Below, piece by piece: positions 11,029 through 18,789 of a stretch of 64,000 bases of DNA. The notes under the pieces were generated by a model, which was not told the origin of the DNA, did not search any database, and worked only from the letters and a program-made list of their open reading frames with translations. This stretch comes from Alphaproteobacteria bacterium. GTDB taxonomy: Bacteria > Pseudomonadota > Alphaproteobacteria > Paracaedibacterales > VGCI01. Each line of letters starts with the position of its first letter. Within the stretch, counting starts at the first letter, position 1. The DNA is taken from NCBI GenBank assembly GCA_016870095.1, contig VGCI01000009.1, forward strand, positions 5,518 to 69,517, in the 5' to 3' direction. A program made the position numbers and the translations under genes.

Positions 11029-11537
11029 ACCTGCGCTTTTTTAGCGCATACTGCCAATACTAGATAATTTTTTATTATAATCAAACATTTAACAATAAGG
11101 CTTCATCTTTATAATTATAATTTAATTGATAATTAAAATTAAATTATTGATATTAGTTTCTCTATAAGATATTCCATTTTATGTAAATAAGTAAAAATTT
11201 TATTAGCTTATTTCTTAATTATTATGCCATTTAAGGCTTTGGATCATCTATTAAAAATAGGGAGATTTATATGAATAAAGTTAATTATGAATCAAAAATA
11301 AACCAAATGTTTGCTCCAATTTTTATTGGTAAATAATACTAGGAATAGTTCATTAAAATAACTTAGAAGATTTTTCCGAAAAACAAATAATTATATTGTT
11401 TTATTGTCATGACTGCAATACCGATACTAAATTTTTTTTAGTCTTAGACGATAATATTTTTTGCTAAACATTAAGAATTCGTTATTATTTTTAAATTAAT
11501 ATTGTTTTGTATATTTATTAATAAGAGGAATTTCTAA

Positions 11538-12455
11538 GTGGATTTTAATTTAGAGCATCTCCGATCTTTTATTATTGTCGCCCGCACAGGTAATCTGAGT
11601 TCAGCAGCGAAAGAGCTTGGAACTACACAACCAAATCTTGGTCGTCAAATGACTGCGCTAAGCAAAGAAGTTAATATAACTCTATTTTCTCGTCATTCAC
11701 GCGGAATAACACTAACAGAACAAGGGGAGGAATTTCTCAAAGTATGTGAAGAGATTATTGGTGATTTTGTTCAAAAAACAGATATTATTCGAGAAAAAAC
11801 ATCGGAACCGCAGGGAACCCTTCGGATAATGATGGGAGTAGGTGCATCACAAATAATCTTAGACCACCTTTCTCCCTTTATTCATAAGTTTCCAAAACTT
11901 TGTTTTAGATTTTCATCCATAACCGACATTTTTCAATTTAAAATCGGAGATGCTGATATTGGTATTATGCCGGTATCATCATCTGACCCAGACTTAATTC
12001 AACACCATCTATACGATATGGATTTAAGAATTTATGCTTCTCCACATTATCTTGCCAAACACTCTCTGCCTAAGACACTTGAGGATTTATACGAGCATAA
12101 TATGGTTGTTTATATTGGCGACACGCCAGAAATCACAAAATCTCTCTCCCTTCACTTAACTGGCAACCCTTCTAGAGATTCTAAATACAAAAACCTTATT
12201 GAAGTTAATAATGGATTATCTCTACGTAAAACTTTATTAAATGGTTTAAGGATTGGAAGTTTTTGGTATGAGGAGGAACTTTTAAAACAAGGAGTTCTTG
12301 TAGATGTATTTCCAAACATGCCAAGTCGCAGTATTCCTCATTATTATACGTATCATCGCCGTTTAGAAAACTCTCCAAAAGTACATGTCTTTCATGAATT
12401 TATGAAGGAAATTGTCAAACCATTCCAAATGATAGCCCCTGCTAATAAAAAGTAA
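11538..12455 (+). CDS. LysR-family transcriptional regulator
   Basis: N-terminal LysR HTH (LRSFIIVARTGNLSSAAKELGTTQPNLGRQMTALSKEV..LFSRHSRGITLTEQG); GTG start with AAGAGG RBS; C-terminal PKVHVFHEFM as in the CrgA/GcvA-like subgroup. Confidence 0.93.
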   Translation: MDFNLEHLRSFIIVARTGNLSSAAKELGTTQPNLGRQMTALSKEVNITLFSRHSRGITLTEQGEEFLKVCEEIIGDFVQKTDIIREKTSEPQGTLRIMMGVGASQIILDHLSPFIHKFPKLCFRFSSITDIFQFKIGDADIGIMPVSSSDPDLIQHHLYDMDLRIYASPHYLAKHSLPKTLEDLYEHNMVVYIGDTPEITKSLSLHLTGNPSRDSKYKNLIEVNNGLSLRKTLLNGLRIGSFWYEEELLKQGVLVDVFPNMPSRSIPHYYTYHRRLENSPKVHVFHEFMKEIVKPFQMIAPANKK

Positions 12456-12553
12456 TATTACAAAAATTTTTATGTACTTCATATTTGAGATAAAAAACAA
12501 GTATATTAAAATTTAACACAATAAAAAGTGACAAATTTATTCTCTGTATTCTA

Positions 12554-12626
12554 GATAGAAAATTATGGAACACATTTTGCTTTTGCGAGCATTTCCGGAA
12601 GAATAGAAATTTCCATTATTTTTGCT
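12554..12626. repeat. 73-bp exact direct repeat, copy 2 (includes the stop codon of ABC binding protein 3)
   Basis: Identical to 10956..11028. Confidence 0.97.
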
Positions 12627-13540
12627 GACCGCGTATTAATGACCAAATCAAGTTGATGATTCACTTCTATGGGTATATCTGAAGCTTTTTCTCCTTTAAG
12701 TATTCTGGCAACTAACTGACCAGCCTTATAACCCATAGCTTTATGAGACGGTGCATGAACAGCCAAAACACCTCTTTCAGCTGAATCATAATCCGGTGTA
12801 AAAATAGGTATTTTATTTGTACGCCCTAAGGCCACAATTCCATCAATTGAGGCCATCGCCGTATTATCAAGAGGGATAAAAATAGCATCTGCTTTCCCAA
12901 TTAAACTGGTAGCTGCCATAAGAGTGTCTGCTGTTCTTGCGGTTGTTGCATAAACTAAAGAATACCCCATTTCAGGGGCAAGCTTTGCTAACTTTTCTAC
13001 AGCTTTAGAAGAATTAGCTTCTCCCGGATTATAGAGAACACCGATAGTTTTAACAAAAGGGGCGATTTTTTGAATGAGCTCCAATTGAGGTCTCAAGGGC
13101 ATTCCGTCACTCACACCTGTTACATTTTCTTTGCCCTTATCAAGAGATGACACAAGACGTGATTCTAAAGAATCAGTTACTGCCGTAAAAACCACAGGAA
13201 CATTATGTTTGGCCATCGGGCGAATGAGACTTTGCGCTGAAGGGGTGGAAATACCAATTGCCACCGCTGGCTTCTGACTAACAAAGCCATCAGCAATTTG
13301 ACTTGCCGTCGCAATGTTACCTTGAGCATTTTGATATAAGAGTCTCATTGTCTTACCGTCCTCAAAGCCTGAATCATTCAAGGCCTTGATGATACCTTCA
13401 CGTTCTTTCGTTAAGGCATCATGATCAACAATTTGCGTAATCACAACAAGGGGCAATTGAGAAGATTGGGGCACATCATCTGCCCAAATACTTCCCATTA
13501 TCAATAAGAAACAGAGAATAAAAAAATGATGAAAGTTCAT
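12563..13540 (-). CDS. ABC transporter substrate-binding protein 3 (ABC_sub_bind/TrpX-like, aromatic amino acid type)
   Basis: Signal peptide; ITQIVDHDAL, QNAQGN, PVVFTAVTD, NVTGVSD, IGVLYNPGEANS, IPLDNT motifs; overlaps upstream paralog by ATGA. Confidence 0.88.
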   Translation of the reverse strand: MNFHHFFILCFLLIMGSIWADDVPQSSQLPLVVITQIVDHDALTKEREGIIKALNDSGFEDGKTMRLLYQNAQGNIATASQIADGFVSQKPAVAIGISTPSAQSLIRPMAKHNVPVVFTAVTDSLESRLVSSLDKGKENVTGVSDGMPLRPQLELIQKIAPFVKTIGVLYNPGEANSSKAVEKLAKLAPEMGYSLVYATTARTADTLMAATSLIGKADAIFIPLDNTAMASIDGIVALGRTNKIPIFTPDYDSAERGVLAVHAPSHKAMGYKAGQLVARILKGEKASDIPIEVNHQLDLVINTRSAKIMEISILPEMLAKAKCVP

Positions 13541-14508
13541 GCCCCGCCTCCGCTTTGTTCTGAAAGCTTTTTCTTCAAAGATTCTGGGACTTTAATTCCA
13601 AGAGATTCAGCAATCTTATTATTTAAATCAACGTTTACATTTGCGGGATATTCTATTTGCAAATCAGAAGCCTTTGCTTCACCTCGCAAAATTTTAGCAA
13701 TCATACGGCCTGTTTGACGGCCAATTTCATATTGATCTGCACCCAAAAGTGCTAAGGCGCCACTTTCTATAAGATTACCATCACTTGCAAAAAGCGGGAT
13801 TTTATTGTCACGACAAATTTGCCCAATGCCATTAATAGCTGCTAATGCTGTATTATCATTGTTGATGAAAATTGCATCAACTTTACCAATCAGACTTTGA
13901 GCCGCACTCGTCACTTCACTTGTTTTCGAAGCTGCTGCAGGTACCAATTCTAGCCCTTTCTTCTTACTATCATCTTGCATTTGGGTCAGAAGACTCGCTG
14001 AATTTGCTTCCCCGGGGTTGTAAACAACGCCGATTTTTTGGGCGTTAGGTAAAATTTTCATGATGACATCAAATTGATCTTTGGGGGGAACAAAGTTTGA
14101 AACTCCTGTAACATTTCCCATTATTTTTGCCCCTTTTGGATCTGTCACAGAAGCAAAAACCACAGGTATTTTTCTGTCTCGCGATGCACTCAAAGCAGCT
14201 TGGGCAGCCGTTGTCCCAATCCCAATAAGTAAATGAACTTCTTGCCCTACAAATTTCTGGGCAACTTGGGTAGCAAGCGCCGGGTTTCCTTGTGCAGAAT
14301 CCCAAGACCATTGTAAATTTTCTTTAAAACCAAGTTGGGTTAATTCATCACGAATTCCTTTGCACGTTGCATCTAGCGCCGGATGTTCAATGACCTGAAT
14401 AACACCAATTTTATAAAGGGTGGTGGGAAGAGATGACGTTGCACCAAAAGTCATTGCAATTGGTAGTATTAAAGCAATAATCGTTTTTATAACTGTTCTA
14501 AAAGCCAT
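13537..14508 (-). CDS. ABC transporter substrate-binding protein 2 (ABC_sub_bind/TrpX-like)
   Basis: IQVIEHPALD, SAQGN, PVVFASVTDP, NVTGVS, IGVVYNPGEANS, INNDNT motifs. Confidence 0.88.
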   Translation of the reverse strand: MAFRTVIKTIIALILPIAMTFGATSSLPTTLYKIGVIQVIEHPALDATCKGIRDELTQLGFKENLQWSWDSAQGNPALATQVAQKFVGQEVHLLIGIGTTAAQAALSASRDRKIPVVFASVTDPKGAKIMGNVTGVSNFVPPKDQFDVIMKILPNAQKIGVVYNPGEANSASLLTQMQDDSKKKGLELVPAAASKTSEVTSAAQSLIGKVDAIFINNDNTALAAINGIGQICRDNKIPLFASDGNLIESGALALLGADQYEIGRQTGRMIAKILRGEAKASDLQIEYPANVNVDLNNKIAESLGIKVPESLKKKLSEQSGGGA

Positions 14509-14605
14509 AATAGGGACTCCATTTTAAAATTCGTTTTTCCATTATTTCGTTCATTCTGATTGGACAAATCATAAGTGTTATGATGGGGTTCCATAATTTT
14601 CTCTC

Positions 14606-15592
14606 CTATTTCTTAATAACAAACTTTGCACGTTTTACAGTAGCTTCGGGAAATATAATCTTTAGTTCTTCTGCTGTATCTTGGTTTAAACTCACCTCAA
14701 TTTCCGCAGGCGTTTCTACGGATAATGTTTGAAGATTTACCCCTTTCAAGATTTTAGCCACCATCCTGCCGGTTTGTCGTCCCAACCCATATTGACAATG
14801 AGCGATGGTTGCAAGACATCCTTGTCTAACGGACTCAGGATCTGAAGAAATAATGGGAATAGTATTGATTTGTGCTATTTTTAAAAGAGACTCAAGCGCC
14901 GCAACAATGGTGTTATCATTGGGAATATATATAACATCAACCTTTCCAATTAACGATCTCGCAGCAGCCGTCACCTCTACCATATTAGAAGCCGTTGCGC
15001 GAACGAGAGTCATCCCCTTTTTCTCTATGTTTTGTTCAAAAATTTTGAGAACAGCAAGAGAATTGGACTCTCCCGGATTATATATTGTTCCCACTCTCTT
15101 CGCATTGGGTAATATATCTTGTAAAAGAGACACCTGTTCCGCCACAGGAGGTAAGTCTGATACCCCTGTAATTCCCTGACCCGCCTTATCCATACTCGGC
15201 ACTAACTTTGCCCCTATCGGATCATTGACGGCTGCAAAAACCACGGGAATGTTATGATTTCGAGCCACTGCATAGATTGTTTGAGTTGAAGGCGTTGTAA
15301 TGGGAACAATAATTGTGGGGTTTTGACTCACAAATTTTTGGGCAATCTGTGTTGCCGTTGCGATATTTCCGTGGGCATTTTCAAACAAAAAATCACAGTC
15401 AATTTTTTGTATCGCCAACTCATCTTCAATTCCATTACGTATGAGATTCAAAGAAGGATGGGGCACAATTTGCGTAATAGCAACGAGGGGCTTTTTCCCC
15501 GGGGATGAATTTGTTCCTGCAGCACATGATATTGCTACTGAAACGAGAATAACACTACGCTGAATGATATTTTTAAAACGATAACTTTTCAT
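14606..15592 (-). CDS. ABC transporter substrate-binding protein 1 (ABC_sub_bind/TrpX-like)
   Basis: ITQIVPHPSL, ENAHGN, PVVFAAVNDP, ITGVSD, VGTIYNPGESNS, IPNDNT motifs; AAGGA RBS. Confidence 0.88.
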   Translation of the reverse strand: MKSYRFKNIIQRSVILVSVAISCAAGTNSSPGKKPLVAITQIVPHPSLNLIRNGIEDELAIQKIDCDFLFENAHGNIATATQIAQKFVSQNPTIIVPITTPSTQTIYAVARNHNIPVVFAAVNDPIGAKLVPSMDKAGQGITGVSDLPPVAEQVSLLQDILPNAKRVGTIYNPGESNSLAVLKIFEQNIEKKGMTLVRATASNMVEVTAAARSLIGKVDVIYIPNDNTIVAALESLLKIAQINTIPIISSDPESVRQGCLATIAHCQYGLGRQTGRMVAKILKGVNLQTLSVETPAEIEVSLNQDTAEELKIIFPEATVKRAKFVIKK

Positions 15593-15612
15593 AATCTTTC
15601 CTTACATTTTTA

Positions 15613-15654
15613 AAACAAAACATTAACAACCTATAAATCACCGATGGTGATAGG
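15613..15654 (-). promoter_or_regulatory. Attenuator-like hairpin plus U-rich tract in the SBP operon leader
   Basis: Minus strand CCTATCACC-ATC-GGTGAT(TT)ATAGG followed by TTGTTAATGTTTTGTTTT; the leader stop codon lies in the 3' arm; TTGACA at 15761-15756 upstream. Confidence 0.5.
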
Positions 15655-15694
15655 CCCGCCAATGTCCGTAATAAAGATGTAAAGACTGAATCAC
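15638..15694 (-). CDS. Putative leader peptide MIQSLHLYYGHWRAYHHR (18 aa), not in ORF track
   Basis: AAAGGAA RBS, 6 T, GTG start at 15694, TGA at 15640-15638; 3 Tyr, 1 Trp, 4 His codons; ends 45 nt upstream of the SBP operon. Confidence 0.6.
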   Translation of the reverse strand: MIQSLHLYYGHWRAYHHR

Positions 15695-15891
15695 AAAAAA
15701 TTCCTTTGAACAAAACCAAGTTTACACCATATTATTTGGTGAAGGTAAGTCATAATGTCAAGAAAATATTTACCAATATCCCGCAGCGCCTTAATTTTAG
15801 CGAAACAGCTCTTGACTAGATTCATCTCGACAACGTGTTTATACTTGAGTCTTGCTATTTCCCATAGGTCATAGTAAAAACCAAAGGTATT

Positions 15892-15966
<75 letters not shown>

Positions 15967-18789
15967 TTACTCCCTAGCAACCGTTTTCAGCTCTTGCGTT
16001 TCCTCTGGCATTGTATCTATGACTTCAGCTTCAGAGATAGGGCTTTCATCTTCTGAACCTGCCTCACCCTCGGTAGTATCTTCCGCATCATCATGGTCAC
16101 CCAAAGGAATGCGGCTTACAGCCACGACTTTTTCTTCCTCGCCCACACGGAAAATGGTCACCCCTTGGGTCCGTCGTCCGGCTATGCGGATGTCGTGCAC
16201 AGGGCAACGAATCAATTGTCCCCCATCTGTTACCAACATAATTTGATCTGTTGGATCAACAGGGAATGAACCAACAACACCACCATTGCGTTCATTGACA
16301 ATGATACTGTCAACACCCATGCCTCCGCGACCCGTTGTGCGGTAACCATAAGAGGAGCTTCTCTTACCAAAACCTTTTTCCGTAATCGTCAAAATAAATT
16401 GTTCGCTGCCCGCAAGCTCTAGAATGCGTTCTGGGGATAGTTTCACAGCCTCTGAAGACCCGTCTTCATCATCCAAACTATCTGATCCCAAAGCATCTTC
16501 GCCTTCCAGTCCTCCTTCAAGAGCCTGACGAGCTTTAGCAGCTTGGCGCAAATAAGCATCACGTTCTTCAGTTGAAATAACCATTTGACCCAATATACCC
16601 ATGGAGATGACTTCATCGTCTTTAGATAAGCGAATACCCCGGACACCATTGGAGTCCCGACCGACGAAGATACGAATATCTGTCATATGGAAGCGTATAC
16701 ATTTGCCTTTTTGAGTGGATAACAATACATCGTCATTTTCTGTACATGTTTGCACGGCAATTAAATTCTCGCCCTCATCCAACTTCATGGCAATTTTACC
16801 ATTTGCTTTAATATTTAAAAAATCGCTTAAGCGGTTGCGTCGAACATTCCCCTTAGAAGTCGCAAACATCACAAACATCTGATCCCACAGATTCTCCTCT
16901 TCCGGTAGGACCATTACTGTCGAAATGGTTTCTCCCTCCGACAAAGGCAGAAGGTTAATCATCGGGCGGCCTCGCGCTTGAGGCGTGGCCAATGGCAGAC
17001 GGTAGGCTTTCAACTGATAAACGCGTCCAATAGACGTAAAGAACAAAACAGGGCTATGAGTATTGGCAACAAAAACATCACTCACAATATCTTCATCACG
17101 GGTGGACATTCCTGATCGTCCCTTACCGCCACGACGTTGTGCTCTATAGGTAGACAATGGCACACGTTTGATGTAGCCATTCAAGCTTACTGTCACAACC
17201 ATGTCTTCCCGCTGAATGAGGTCTTCCATATCAACATCGGAACCCCCTTCTTCAATCGTGGTCCGTCGCGGTGTCGCGAACTGTTGTTTCATCTCAATCA
17301 GCTCGTTACGCAAGATATCCATAACCAACTGGCGAGACGCCAAAATGCGCAAATATTCAGCAATCATATCGGCAAGTTCTTGCAAATCTGCCGCTATTTT
17401 ATCCCGTTCCAACCCTGTCAAACGGTGAAGACGTAAATCCAAGATGGCTTGAGCTTGCGCATCGGAAAGTCGGTACGTATTCCCCACCACTTCTCGATCG
17501 GGTTCAACTAAAGAAATAAGAGCTGCTACGGATTCTGATGGCCAATCTTGTGCCATTAACTGTGCTTTAGCAACTTGCCGATCAGCAGCGGCACGAATCA
17601 AGGCAATGATTGGATCAATATTAGCAACCGCAATGGCTAAGCCTACAAAGAGGTGGGCTTTTTCTCGGGCCCGAGCCAGCTCATACCGCGTGCGACGCAA
17701 AATAACTTCCTCACGAAATTCGACGAAAGCTTCCAGAATTCTTTTAAGAGGCAATTGCTCGGGTCGACCATGATTAAGAGCCAACATATTGATACCAAAA
17801 GATGTTTGTAAAGCCGTATACCGGTACAATTGATTTAAAACAACATCAGGAACAGCATCTCGCTTTAACTCAATAACAACCCGCATTCCTTGACGATCGG
17901 ACTCATCTCGCAAATCAGAAATGCCTTCAATAATTTTTTCTTTGACCGTTTCGGCGATGCGCTCGATCATGCGTGATTTGTTAACTTGATAAGGAATTTC
18001 ATCAATGATAATGGCTTCCCGATCTCCCCGAAGCGTCTCAAAATGTGTTTTTCCGCGAATGACGATAGAACCACGTCCCGTACGATAGGCTTCAAAAATT
18101 CCCCCGCGCCCCATAATTGACGCCCCCGTTGGGAAATCAGGTCCGGGGACTATGGCGATGAGTTCCTCAACTGTAATGTCAGGATTATCAATAAGCGCAC
18201 AACACGCCTCTAGGACTTCCCCTAAATTGTGGGTGGGTATATTGGTTGCCATACCGACCGCAATTCCACTCCCCCCATTAACTAATATGTTCGGAAAACG
18301 GGCTGGCAGAACTTTGGGCTCAACCATGGAATCATCATAATTGGGCTGAAAATCAACGGTATCTTTATCAATGTCTTCGAGAAGGGCATGAGAGGGTTTA
18401 CTCAGCCTTGCTTCCGTATAACGGGAGGCAGCAGCAGGGTCGCCATCCATTGATCCAAAGTTTCCCTGTCCATCGATCAATGTCAGTCTTAAAGAAAAAT
18501 CTTGAGCAAGACGAACCATAGCATCATAAATTGCCATATCACCATGAGGGTGATATTTACCCATAACATCACCCACTGTTCGTGCAGATTTACGATAGGG
18601 CCGATTATATTCGTTTCCGGCTTCCTTCATCGCATACAATATGCGTCTATGAACCGGCTTCAACCCATCTCGCACGTCAGGCAATGCACGAGACACAATA
18701 ACGCTCATTGCATAATCTAAATAGGAGCGTTTCATCTCCTCTTCGATAGCAATAGGCTTAATATCTGATGGCTGAAGGGACGTTGTCAT
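15967..18789 (-). CDS. gyrA: DNA gyrase subunit A
   Basis: [29 protein letters not shown] active site, GyrA-box QRRGGKG, acidic C-tail. Confidence 0.97.

Follow-up and report, generated by a model that had tools for sequence, protein, structure and literature searches.

A Trp-codon leader peptide and a start-masking hairpin ahead of TrpX-family binding protein genes in a reduced-genome alphaproteobacterial order: a candidate translational attenuator

Background

Leader-peptide attenuation is textbook material for biosynthetic operons, where the output is transcriptional. A stretch of 64,000 nucleotides (nt) from the genome of an alphaproteobacterium (assembly GCA_016870095.1, contig VGCI01000009.1, positions 5,518 to 69,517; hereafter, the window) raises the question of whether a short upstream open reading frame (uORF1) rich in Tyr, Trp and His codons, located in the intergenic region between a tRNA-Val(GAC) gene and the first of three genes for PF04392 (ABC_sub_bind) substrate-binding proteins (SBP1 to SBP3), is a genuine leader, what it senses, and which step of expression it controls. 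A first-pass annotation, made from the window alone, had proposed a multi-amino-acid attenuator shared by the three genes. The comparative analysis presented here points to a real and widely conserved regulatory element, with hungry-codon translational attenuation as the probable mechanism. Specifically, we put at roughly 0.55 the probability that uORF1 and an overlapping hairpin constitute an erm-like, ribosome-mediated translational attenuator for SBP1 that is triggered by Trp starvation. In the genus of the window, Tyr and His are probably sensed as well. We infer both the signal, that is, pausing at Trp, Tyr or His codons, and the direction of the response.

The window genome (G000; the window contig is C9) is 1.8 Mb in size and 99% complete. 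All window coordinates are on the minus strand unless stated otherwise.

A short conserved coding sequence ahead of SBP1

The leader region and the genes that follow it contain these features:

15756..15761, minus strand: -35 box TTGACA, part of a CTTGACA that is invariant in 7/7 genus sequences
15736-15731, minus strand: candidate -10 box AATAAT (uncertain), separated from TTGACA by a 19-nt spacer
15701..15707, minus strand: uORF1 Shine-Dalgarno (SD) sequence AAAGGAA, at the 5' foot of the hairpin; AAGG(A/G) lies 6-7 nt before the GTG in 7/7 genus sequences
15638..15694, minus strand: uORF1, GTG start, 18 codons, MIQSLHLYYGHWRAYHHR, TGA stop; from translation and conservation
15677..15685, minus strand: anti-SD segment UCUUUACAU, codons 4-6 of uORF1; from minimum free energy (MFE) and centroid structures, alifold and a swap test
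15668..15673, minus strand: Tyr8-Tyr9 codons (TAT TAC), a tandem pair specific to the genus
15659..15661, minus strand: Trp12 codon (UGG), the sole residue retained in every leader of the family
15630..15654, minus strand: apical hairpin CCTATCACC-atc-GGTGAT..ATAGG, enclosing the uORF1 TGA
15578..15702, minus strand: whole leader hairpin, with uORF1 as the 5' arm, and the spacer together with the SBP1 SD and AUG as the 3' arm
15599..15604, minus strand: SBP1 SD UAAGGA, predicted to be sequestered (probability of pairing with the uORF 0.99; unpaired 0.01 in free RNA)
14606..15592, minus strand: SBP1, 328 amino acids (aa), PF04392 ABC_sub_bind (Pfam E-value 3.7e-77)
13537..14508, minus strand: SBP2, 323 aa, PF04392 (E-value 2.6e-75)
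12563..13540, minus strand: SBP3, 325 aa, PF04392 (E-value 5.8e-79); its start overlaps the SBP2 stop

All the parts listed in the first-pass annotation are thus present, namely the TTGACA box, the AAAGGAA ribosome-binding site, the GTG-started uORF in which 8/18 codons specify Tyr, Trp or His, and the TGA embedded in a hairpin. Taken alone, the composition of uORF1 is unusual but not decisive. With every frame of the window genome considered, 11 of 22,535 ORFs that are 12-25 codons long contain at least 8 Trp, Tyr or His codons, so that composition does not settle the matter; among the 2,253 such ORFs with an SD-like motif, uORF1 is the only one with 7 or more.

That uORF1 is more than a chance ORF follows from its conservation in the genus with coding-type substitutions. 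Six further genus genomes have the three-SBP cluster, with an SBP1 that is only 64-69% identical, and uORF1 occupies the same place, with the GTG start and the SD kept, in 6/6 of these. The comparison of orthologous upstream regions that had been suggested as a check is positive: the ribosome-binding site and the ORF are kept in 7/7 genus sequences, with synonymous changes. Upstream of the -35 box, the DNA of these genomes is unrelated and the neighbouring genes differ. The genus consensus peptide reads M-x3-L-H-[LH]-Y-Y-G-[HR]-W-R-A-Y-H-H-[WR], and the synonymous changes involve Leu5 (TTA/CTA/TTG), Arg13 (CGG/CGT/CGC) and Ala14 (GCC/GCT); one genus genome carries an in-frame 3-nt insertion in uORF1. 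In another (G002), the stop is TAA instead of TGA, and the hairpin changes from ATCACC/GGTGAT to ATTACC/GGTAAT, that is, in a compensatory manner. In a 98%-identical strain represented in public DNA runs, the sole difference within the leader is a synonymous ATT>ATC change in codon 2. These comparisons support the identification of uORF1 as a genuine conserved leader peptide ahead of SBPs of the aromatic-amino-acid type. As for the promoter, TTGAC(A/T)-17-nt-TATA-like boxes are present at the equivalent place in other families; the window promoter was not called by the consensus scan because of its 19-nt spacer.

A long hairpin pairs the leader with the SBP1 start

The segment 15702-15578 folds into one imperfect hairpin of ~50 bp with a free energy of -41.2 kcal/mol, against a shuffle mean of -20.7 (z-score -6.59; 0/200 shuffles are equally stable). 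The small hairpin at 15654-15630 noticed in the first-pass annotation does exist but is merely the apex of this structure, and because the full hairpin spans 15702-15578, the element reaches beyond position 15613, where it had been taken to end. In the predicted fold, the SBP1 SD pairs with uORF1 codons 4-6 (UCUUUACAU) and the SBP1 AUG pairs with the uORF1 start region; the distance from the uORF1 stop to the SBP1 ATG (15592) is 45 nt. The consensus fold of the 7 genus sequences comprises 46 pairs, with 6 compensatory changes, and a second alignment yields 49 pairs and 10 compensatory changes; the pairs between the anti-SD and the SBP1 SD correspond to alifold columns 26-33/110-117 and include compensatory changes.

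The same architecture extends beyond the genus. In 30/30 curated loci from 8 families, folded from uORF-10 to SBP ATG+12, the MFE structure is a single long hairpin in which the SBP SD is paired with uORF codons 3-7; the z-scores range from -1.2 to -10.1 and are -3 or lower in 23/30. In the other families, an apical hairpin of unrelated sequence also encloses the stop. The stem sequences vary by family (UCCUACAU/AUGUAGGA, CCAACAU/AUGUUGG, CUUUUUC/GAAAAAG and others), which is why an alignment-free covariation test was used; MAFFT combined with alifold put the 3' arm of the more diverged families out of register and was replaced by the per-sequence folds and this swap test. The 5' arm pairs with its own SBP initiation region at a mean of -16.3 kcal/mol, compared to -10.0 with those of other families, the cognate pair being the stronger one in 29/30 loci and in 8/8 family representatives (p 0.008). 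The motif TGGCG is present in 29/30 of the 5' arms, and its 3' partner differs between families.

The folding of alternative structures, which had also been suggested as a check, returned this stable fold and no competitor: the MFE, centroid and consensus folds all give one nested hairpin, with no terminator/antiterminator alternative. A scan for terminator and promoter consensus sequences likewise found no terminator at the hairpin, so that the classical trp layout does not apply, as the first-pass annotation had anticipated. Downstream of the apex, the window's genus and families f7 and f8 have a U-rich tract, which f3, f4 and f10 lack; it lies at least 10 nt from the apical stem and is itself paired within the long hairpin. 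An Rfam cmscan of positions 12000-17000 (E-value up to 1) returned only the neighbouring tRNA-Val and chance matches, with no Trp_leader (RF00513).

Distribution and conserved core of the leader

The order in question consists of Paracaedibacter relatives within the NCBI Holosporales, the window's own relatives coming from lake water. A covariance model built from the 7 genus sequences (R1) matches solely upstream of SBP1 orthologues. As a wide finder this model was too narrow, with only 2 leaders found outside the genus; the cmsearch alignment A3 was left unused because of antisense and false rows, and the degenerate DNA pattern CAYTGGCGNTGGCRNCAYCAY, run over all genomes, produced almost exclusively chance matches. 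Reading the upstream regions directly showed that 9/10 families of the order have a uORF, 11-19 codons long and separated from the SBP start by 36-78 nt (for example, MIFFQNKHWRWRHHAN, MLGLNYSHSWRWRHHHSC, MFLTLLHARWWRHHNS, MFLVLHTWRWHHGH and MLRHFPRWRHG).

The conserved order-wide core of these peptides is [H/R]-W-R-[W/L/A]-[R/H]-H-H. Trp, which makes up 1.1% of the proteome, is found at codons 8-13 in 36/36 leaders, most of which contain at least 2 Trp; no other residue is universal. The core residues interchange among W, R, H, L and A (WRW, WWR, WHW, WRL, WRA), and the N-terminal part of the peptide is variable. Of the proposed joint sensing of Tyr, Trp and His, the part that holds across the order is Trp flanked by Arg and His (W-R-W-R-H-H), whereas the tandem Tyr codons are confined to the window's genus.

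In a class-wide sample of 300 genomes, five more small-genome alphaproteobacterial lineages were found to possess the hairpin and the anti-SD. Here the uORF has 43-55 codons, crosses the SBP SD and AUG, and ends inside the SBP gene; the cores read RWWRWR, GWRWQ, CWRWR, HRWWRWQ and FWWRWRH (loci L182, L184, L191, L193 and L198). Members of the order have 2-6 codons between the core and the stop, and these other lineages have >25. The position of the stop is thus not conserved, and the common denominator therefore consists of the Trp codons and the anti-SD. No comparable leader was found in high-G+C free-living alphaproteobacteria with orthologous SBPs.

Some individual loci are noted here in their own right. 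In family f9, the sole leaderless family, a gene of the Trp_repressor family (PF01371, YerC/YecD-like) lies directly upstream of the SBP gene (L171, G014:C14; E-value 1e-21), and at L207 (G355:C3) a similar C-terminal sequence precedes an SBP paralogue. The leader of locus L179 (G032:C44, family f8) has an in-frame TAA after codon 5 (MIMMH*...ARWRHG), which may be a natural knock-out or a sequencing error.

Auxotrophy and the TrpX family

TrpA (PF00290) and HisD (PF00815) were detected in 0/62 genomes of the order, with the same searches positive in 14/14 controls, and chorismate synthase in 0/7 genomes of the window's genus; family f7 has chorismate synthase in 7/8. The window organism, being without TrpA, HisD and chorismate synthase, is an auxotroph, which the first-pass annotation had thought probable. 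Outside the order, 4/5 leader-bearing lineages are without TrpA, and 14/16 leaderless lineages have it.

By sequence, the proteins presumed to be regulated belong to the TrpX family of SBPs. The three SBPs of the window score 254-266 bits for PF04392 (gathering threshold 25.9), and the relatives of SBP1 in the PDB are 3lkv, 6hni and 3lft. The trpX gene of Streptococcus suis, a Trp-uptake gene of the same SBP family, is under the control of a Trp T-box, and structure 3LFT contains Trp (PMC9382623).

Further leaders and the CGA codon

Two more uORFs precede SBP genes of the window genome:

14487..14594, minus strand: uORF2, MEPHHNTYDLSNQNERNNGKTNFKMESLLWLLEQL, between SBP1 and SBP2, reading MEPHHNTYDL...
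Contig C4, locus L004, ~2400-2615, minus strand: third uORF, MLHFRFKSCCYCWNLHEK..., 38 codons, upstream of the sole SBP-permease-ATPase operon, outside the window

The SD of uORF2, GGAGAG (14606-14601), shares its first base with the end of the SBP1 stop TAG (14608-14606), and uORF2 itself overlaps the SBP2 start in another frame. Its sequence in the genus is M-[ED]-H-H-H-x-Y-Y-Y, a run that is partly eroded to PHH-NT-Y in the window genome; in families f4 and f7 it begins with MHHHH.., MHCHHHC.. or MHHHHCC.. These sequences make uORF2 look like a sensor of His (plus Tyr or Cys) for SBP2 and SBP3. The third leader, which reads MLHFRFKSCCYYWN... in the genus, also overlaps the SBP start, and its F-R-F core (UUU CGA UUU AG) recurs in families f3, f4 and f6. 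Leaders 2 and 3 were considered as hairpin-type elements and rejected as such, being less structured than shuffled sequences (z-scores +0.6 to +3, with one value of -0.4).

Among other PF04392 paralogues, we observed the uORFs MHYYRYYT... (UAU UAU CGA UAU UAU; L226, G012:C1), MCCCSSQFF... (L225, G012:C4) and ...CFCCDC... (L229, G027:C67). Sequence thus suggests that the uORFs of PF04392 paralogues are built as X-Arg-X or as runs, the sensed amino acid differing from one to another. Given leaders 2 and 3 and those of the other paralogues, one sensor per cistron appears to be the arrangement, and the initial proposal of one leader for three importers becomes unlikely, separate leaders preceding SBP2 and the C4 paralogue. 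The His-run leader inside the operon, before SBP2, has the look of a canonical starvation leader and points to cistron-specific translational control.

The Arg codon beside the sensor codons shows a pronounced bias. In leader 1 it is CGA in 41/56 cases, and between the Phe or Tyr codons of the F-R-F and Y-R-Y leaders it is CGA in 14/14; genome-wide, CGA accounts for 20% of Arg codons. AGA and AGG are never found beside Trp in the leaders. CGA is decoded slowly in Salmonella (PMC4046918). An explanation of the bias by slow I:A wobble is weakened by the presence in the genome of a gene for tRNA-Arg(UCG), a Watson-Crick reader of CGA, and the bias is therefore left unexplained. The leader types comprise W-R-W for SBP1, a His run with or without Tyr or Cys for SBP2, F-R-F for the SBP encoded with a permease and an ATPase, and YY-R-YY or Cys runs for further paralogues. 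It is possible, although we regard this as doubtful, that the leader codons of each PF04392 cistron name the imported amino acid, with cistron-specific translational derepression and CGA serving as a sensitising pause. If so, transporter specificity could be predicted from the leaders as from a code.

A model of translational attenuation and its alternatives

Under the favoured reading, codons 3-7 of uORF1 in the free mRNA would pair with the SBP1 SD, and the leader start region would pair with the SBP1 AUG, so that initiation at SBP1 would be blocked because both signals are held by the leader. A ribosome would load at the leader SD, which lies outside the stem, and would open the 5' arm in the course of translation. 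With charged tRNA-Trp in plentiful supply, the ribosome would reach the stop in the apical loop and depart, and the hairpin would re-form; in the window's genus, tRNA-Tyr and tRNA-His probably act likewise. When charged tRNA is scarce, the ribosome would pause at the hungry codons, on or beside the anti-SD, with a following ribosome possibly held at the leader start codon, and the paused ribosome would keep the SBP1 SD and AUG single-stranded, resulting in the production of more binding protein.

We favour this reading because of the coding signature of uORF1, the stability of the hairpin, the order-wide architecture, the covariation of cognate arms and the universal Trp, together with the lack of a conserved terminator, the loss of TrpA and HisD, the trpX T-box precedent and the internal His-run leader. 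Attenuation at the level of translation is preferred because what all versions share is a translated leader with an anti-SD in its 5' part and Trp codons further along, opposite an arm that contains the SBP SD and AUG. Neither the U tract nor the stop position is shared, which argues against termination control as well as against simple termination-reinitiation coupling. Among the switch logics that had been entertained in the first-pass annotation, the translational one accordingly fits best, given an SD-sequestering hairpin, while the terminator that another of them implies was not found.

The consequences of ribosome pausing were approximated by a footprint scan that bars a 27-nt stretch around each A-site codon from pairing; the scan is thermodynamic only and ignores sterics, such as the closing of the helix around the 70S ribosome, as well as ribosome queuing. 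In the window genome, in line with the favoured reading, the SD is most exposed when one of the tandem Tyr codons occupies the A site, being unpaired with a probability of 0.92 at Tyr8 and 0.77 at Tyr9. The first Trp in the A site unmasks the SD in L023 (0.93) and L019 (0.81). Relative to the anti-SD, the Tyr-Tyr pair of the genus occupies the place that Trp has in the other families, and this position, combined with the absence of chorismate synthase, makes Tyr a plausible added signal in the genus.

Several observations weigh against the proposed mechanism. In a number of genomes the SD stays paired with Trp in the A site (unpaired 0.01 in G000 at Trp12, 0.01 in L017 and 0.05 in L035), so that pausing at Trp alone may need steric exclusion or a queued second ribosome; with Trp 9-12 codons from the start, a second ribosome would sit on the start codon, the pair covering the whole 5' arm. 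Between the end of the anti-SD and the first Trp codon there are 8-22 nt, which places the anti-SD at the rear edge of a ribosome footprint or past it. The specific order W-R-W-R-H-H and the near-exclusive use of CGA exceed the needs of a plain hungry-codon model, and some uORFs in other families are without an obvious SD. The pairing probability of the SD is 0.84, compared to 0.66 with a shuffled 5' arm, a weak test because any pyrimidine-rich arm pairs with the SD. Finally, the public runs that contain the locus are DNA, or uninformative RNA contigs (X26 and X27, fragments from relatives).

The conservation of residue order over 9 families, with an Arg codon that varies synonymously within the genus, is conservation at the peptide level and would also be expected if W-R-W-R-H-H arrested the ribosome that makes it, be it unaided or upon binding a small molecule (free Trp, for instance, as with TnaC), and the arrested ribosome kept the SD open; the importer would then answer to the ligand or to the state of the tunnel rather than to uncharged tRNA. 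The R-W-R (+X+) arrangement is frequent, and the pairing between anti-SD and SD is equally compatible with such nascent-peptide arrest. We nonetheless consider arrest unlikely, given that W, R, H, L and A readily replace one another in the core, that the variable distance from the core to the stop does not fit termination-linked arrest, that sister leaders contain plain runs (HHHH, YYY, F-R-F, YY-R-YY) typical of codon sensors, and that induction by substrate is less sensible where Trp cannot be made. Arrest of the macrolide type on +X+ (R-x-R) was rejected, since not every leader has the motif and SBPs rather than resistance genes are the targets. Slightly less likely again is a constitutive role, in which translation of the uORF just opens the hairpin and ties SBP1 output to translation in general, or in which the hairpin chiefly shields the mRNA 5' end; the aromatic and basic codons would then be by-products of the G-rich pairing segment UGGCG. 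The footprint scan, which opens the SD mainly at codons 2-9 irrespective of codon identity, is consistent with such gating. So is the nature of the W, R and H codons, which neighbour one another mutationally and occupy the stretch of the stem with the highest G+C content. This explanation is at odds with the persistence of TGGCG opposite 3' partners that vary by family, with the amino-acid runs in the unstructured leaders 2 and 3, and with the tracking of leader presence with TrpA loss.

Control of transcription, with the hairpin or its apex acting as an intrinsic or Rho-dependent terminator set by the position of the leader ribosome, is improbable. It would account for the U-rich tract after the apex in the window's genus, f7 and f8, but this tract is distant, paired, and missing in f3, f4 and f10; moreover, the terminator scan was negative at the site, no antiterminator fold and no Rfam match were found, and a second leader inside the operon implies control per cistron. 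It is more improbable still that uORF1 encodes a free-standing micro-protein, for instance a metal- or RNA-binding peptide, whose position is incidental. Such a product would share the peptide-level conservation, and trans-acting leader peptides are known, such as peTrpL of Sinorhizobium (PMC7298713); against this, uORF1 always lies immediately 5' of the same SBP orthologue and pairs with its SD and AUG, and its N-terminal part is variable.

Relationship to known regulatory systems

Full-text literature searches found no description of this leader element, which is also absent from Rfam. TnaC, an arrest peptide that depends on free Trp and acts via Rho, requires W12, D16 and P24 at set distances from the stop. 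The tnaC-tnaAB system resembles the element described here in its short leader, which has a conserved Trp and precedes genes one of which encodes a Trp permease; here, in contrast, the spacing to the stop is variable. The trpL leader of Escherichia coli contains ...GWWRTS. The likeness to the trpL attenuators (E. coli trp; Sinorhizobium trpE(G), PMC6614838) consists in a short leader with Trp codons followed by Arg, in the sensing of charged tRNA-Trp via ribosome position, and in an RNA structure that overlaps the leader. Unlike in these attenuators, there is no terminator and there are no 1:2/2:3/3:4 alternatives, the proposed output is the accessibility of a downstream SD, and control would fall not on a biosynthetic operon but on an uptake protein of a Trp auxotroph.

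Mechanistic parallels are provided by erm and cat leaders (ermC, ermB, cat-86; PMC5499644, PMC9178857), in which a leader segment pairs with the downstream SD and AUG and a stalled ribosome frees them. In those systems, however, the stall depends on an antibiotic and the nascent peptide and involves two alternative stem-loops, whereas here it would presumably result from amino-acid limitation, on one long hairpin. The predicted LEU element before actinobacterial leuA (PMC1262725) is similar in that the RNA of a uORF pairs with the SD of the regulated gene in the absence of a terminator; it differs in lineage, amino acid and target, and in that its Leu codons themselves pair with the SD, with a pseudoknot proposed, whereas here 8-22 nt separate the anti-SD from the sensor codons downstream of it. 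The Trp T-box of S. suis trpXYZ (PMC9382623) matches the present case in the TrpX-like SBP of PF04392 and in the control of Trp uptake by tRNA-Trp charging in an auxotroph; the T-box binds tRNA and terminates transcription, whereas here the ribosome would be the sensor and translation would respond. As for uORF2, its uninterrupted run of His codons early in a short ORF is reminiscent of hisL, from which it differs in being unstructured, in overlapping the SBP2 start and in its location inside an operon; occlusion of the ribosome-binding site or coupling (cf. PMC13285730) is more likely here than termination.

Thus, the sensing principle of leader peptides is apparently wired to translation initiation of uptake proteins, across a whole reduced-genome order of Trp/His auxotrophs and in at least 5 further small-genome lineages. 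This provides a testable example of amino-acid-sensing translational attenuation in bacteria and offers an explanation for the control of nutrient scavenging in organisms without most transcription factors. The leader types (Trp, His, Phe, Tyr, Cys) might also allow prediction of ligands for uncharacterised SBP paralogues.

Genomic neighbourhood

Neither a permease nor an ATPase gene is located beside the three SBP genes of the window; the sole complete transporter of the genome (SBP, PF02653 permease and ATPase) is encoded on contig C4. On the other side, the leader promoter has a divergent neighbour:

15892-15966, plus strand: tRNA-Val(GAC)

The same tRNA gene lies beside the leader promoter in two genus relatives, and different neighbours are found in others; the unit of promoter, leader and SBP genes therefore moves as a block.

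An 84-nt direct repeat, 95% identical between its copies at 10952-11035 and 12550-12633, brackets a convergent LysR gene (11538-12455), and the right copy spans the 3' end of SBP3. The original downstream context of the SBP operon was probably interrupted by an insertion.

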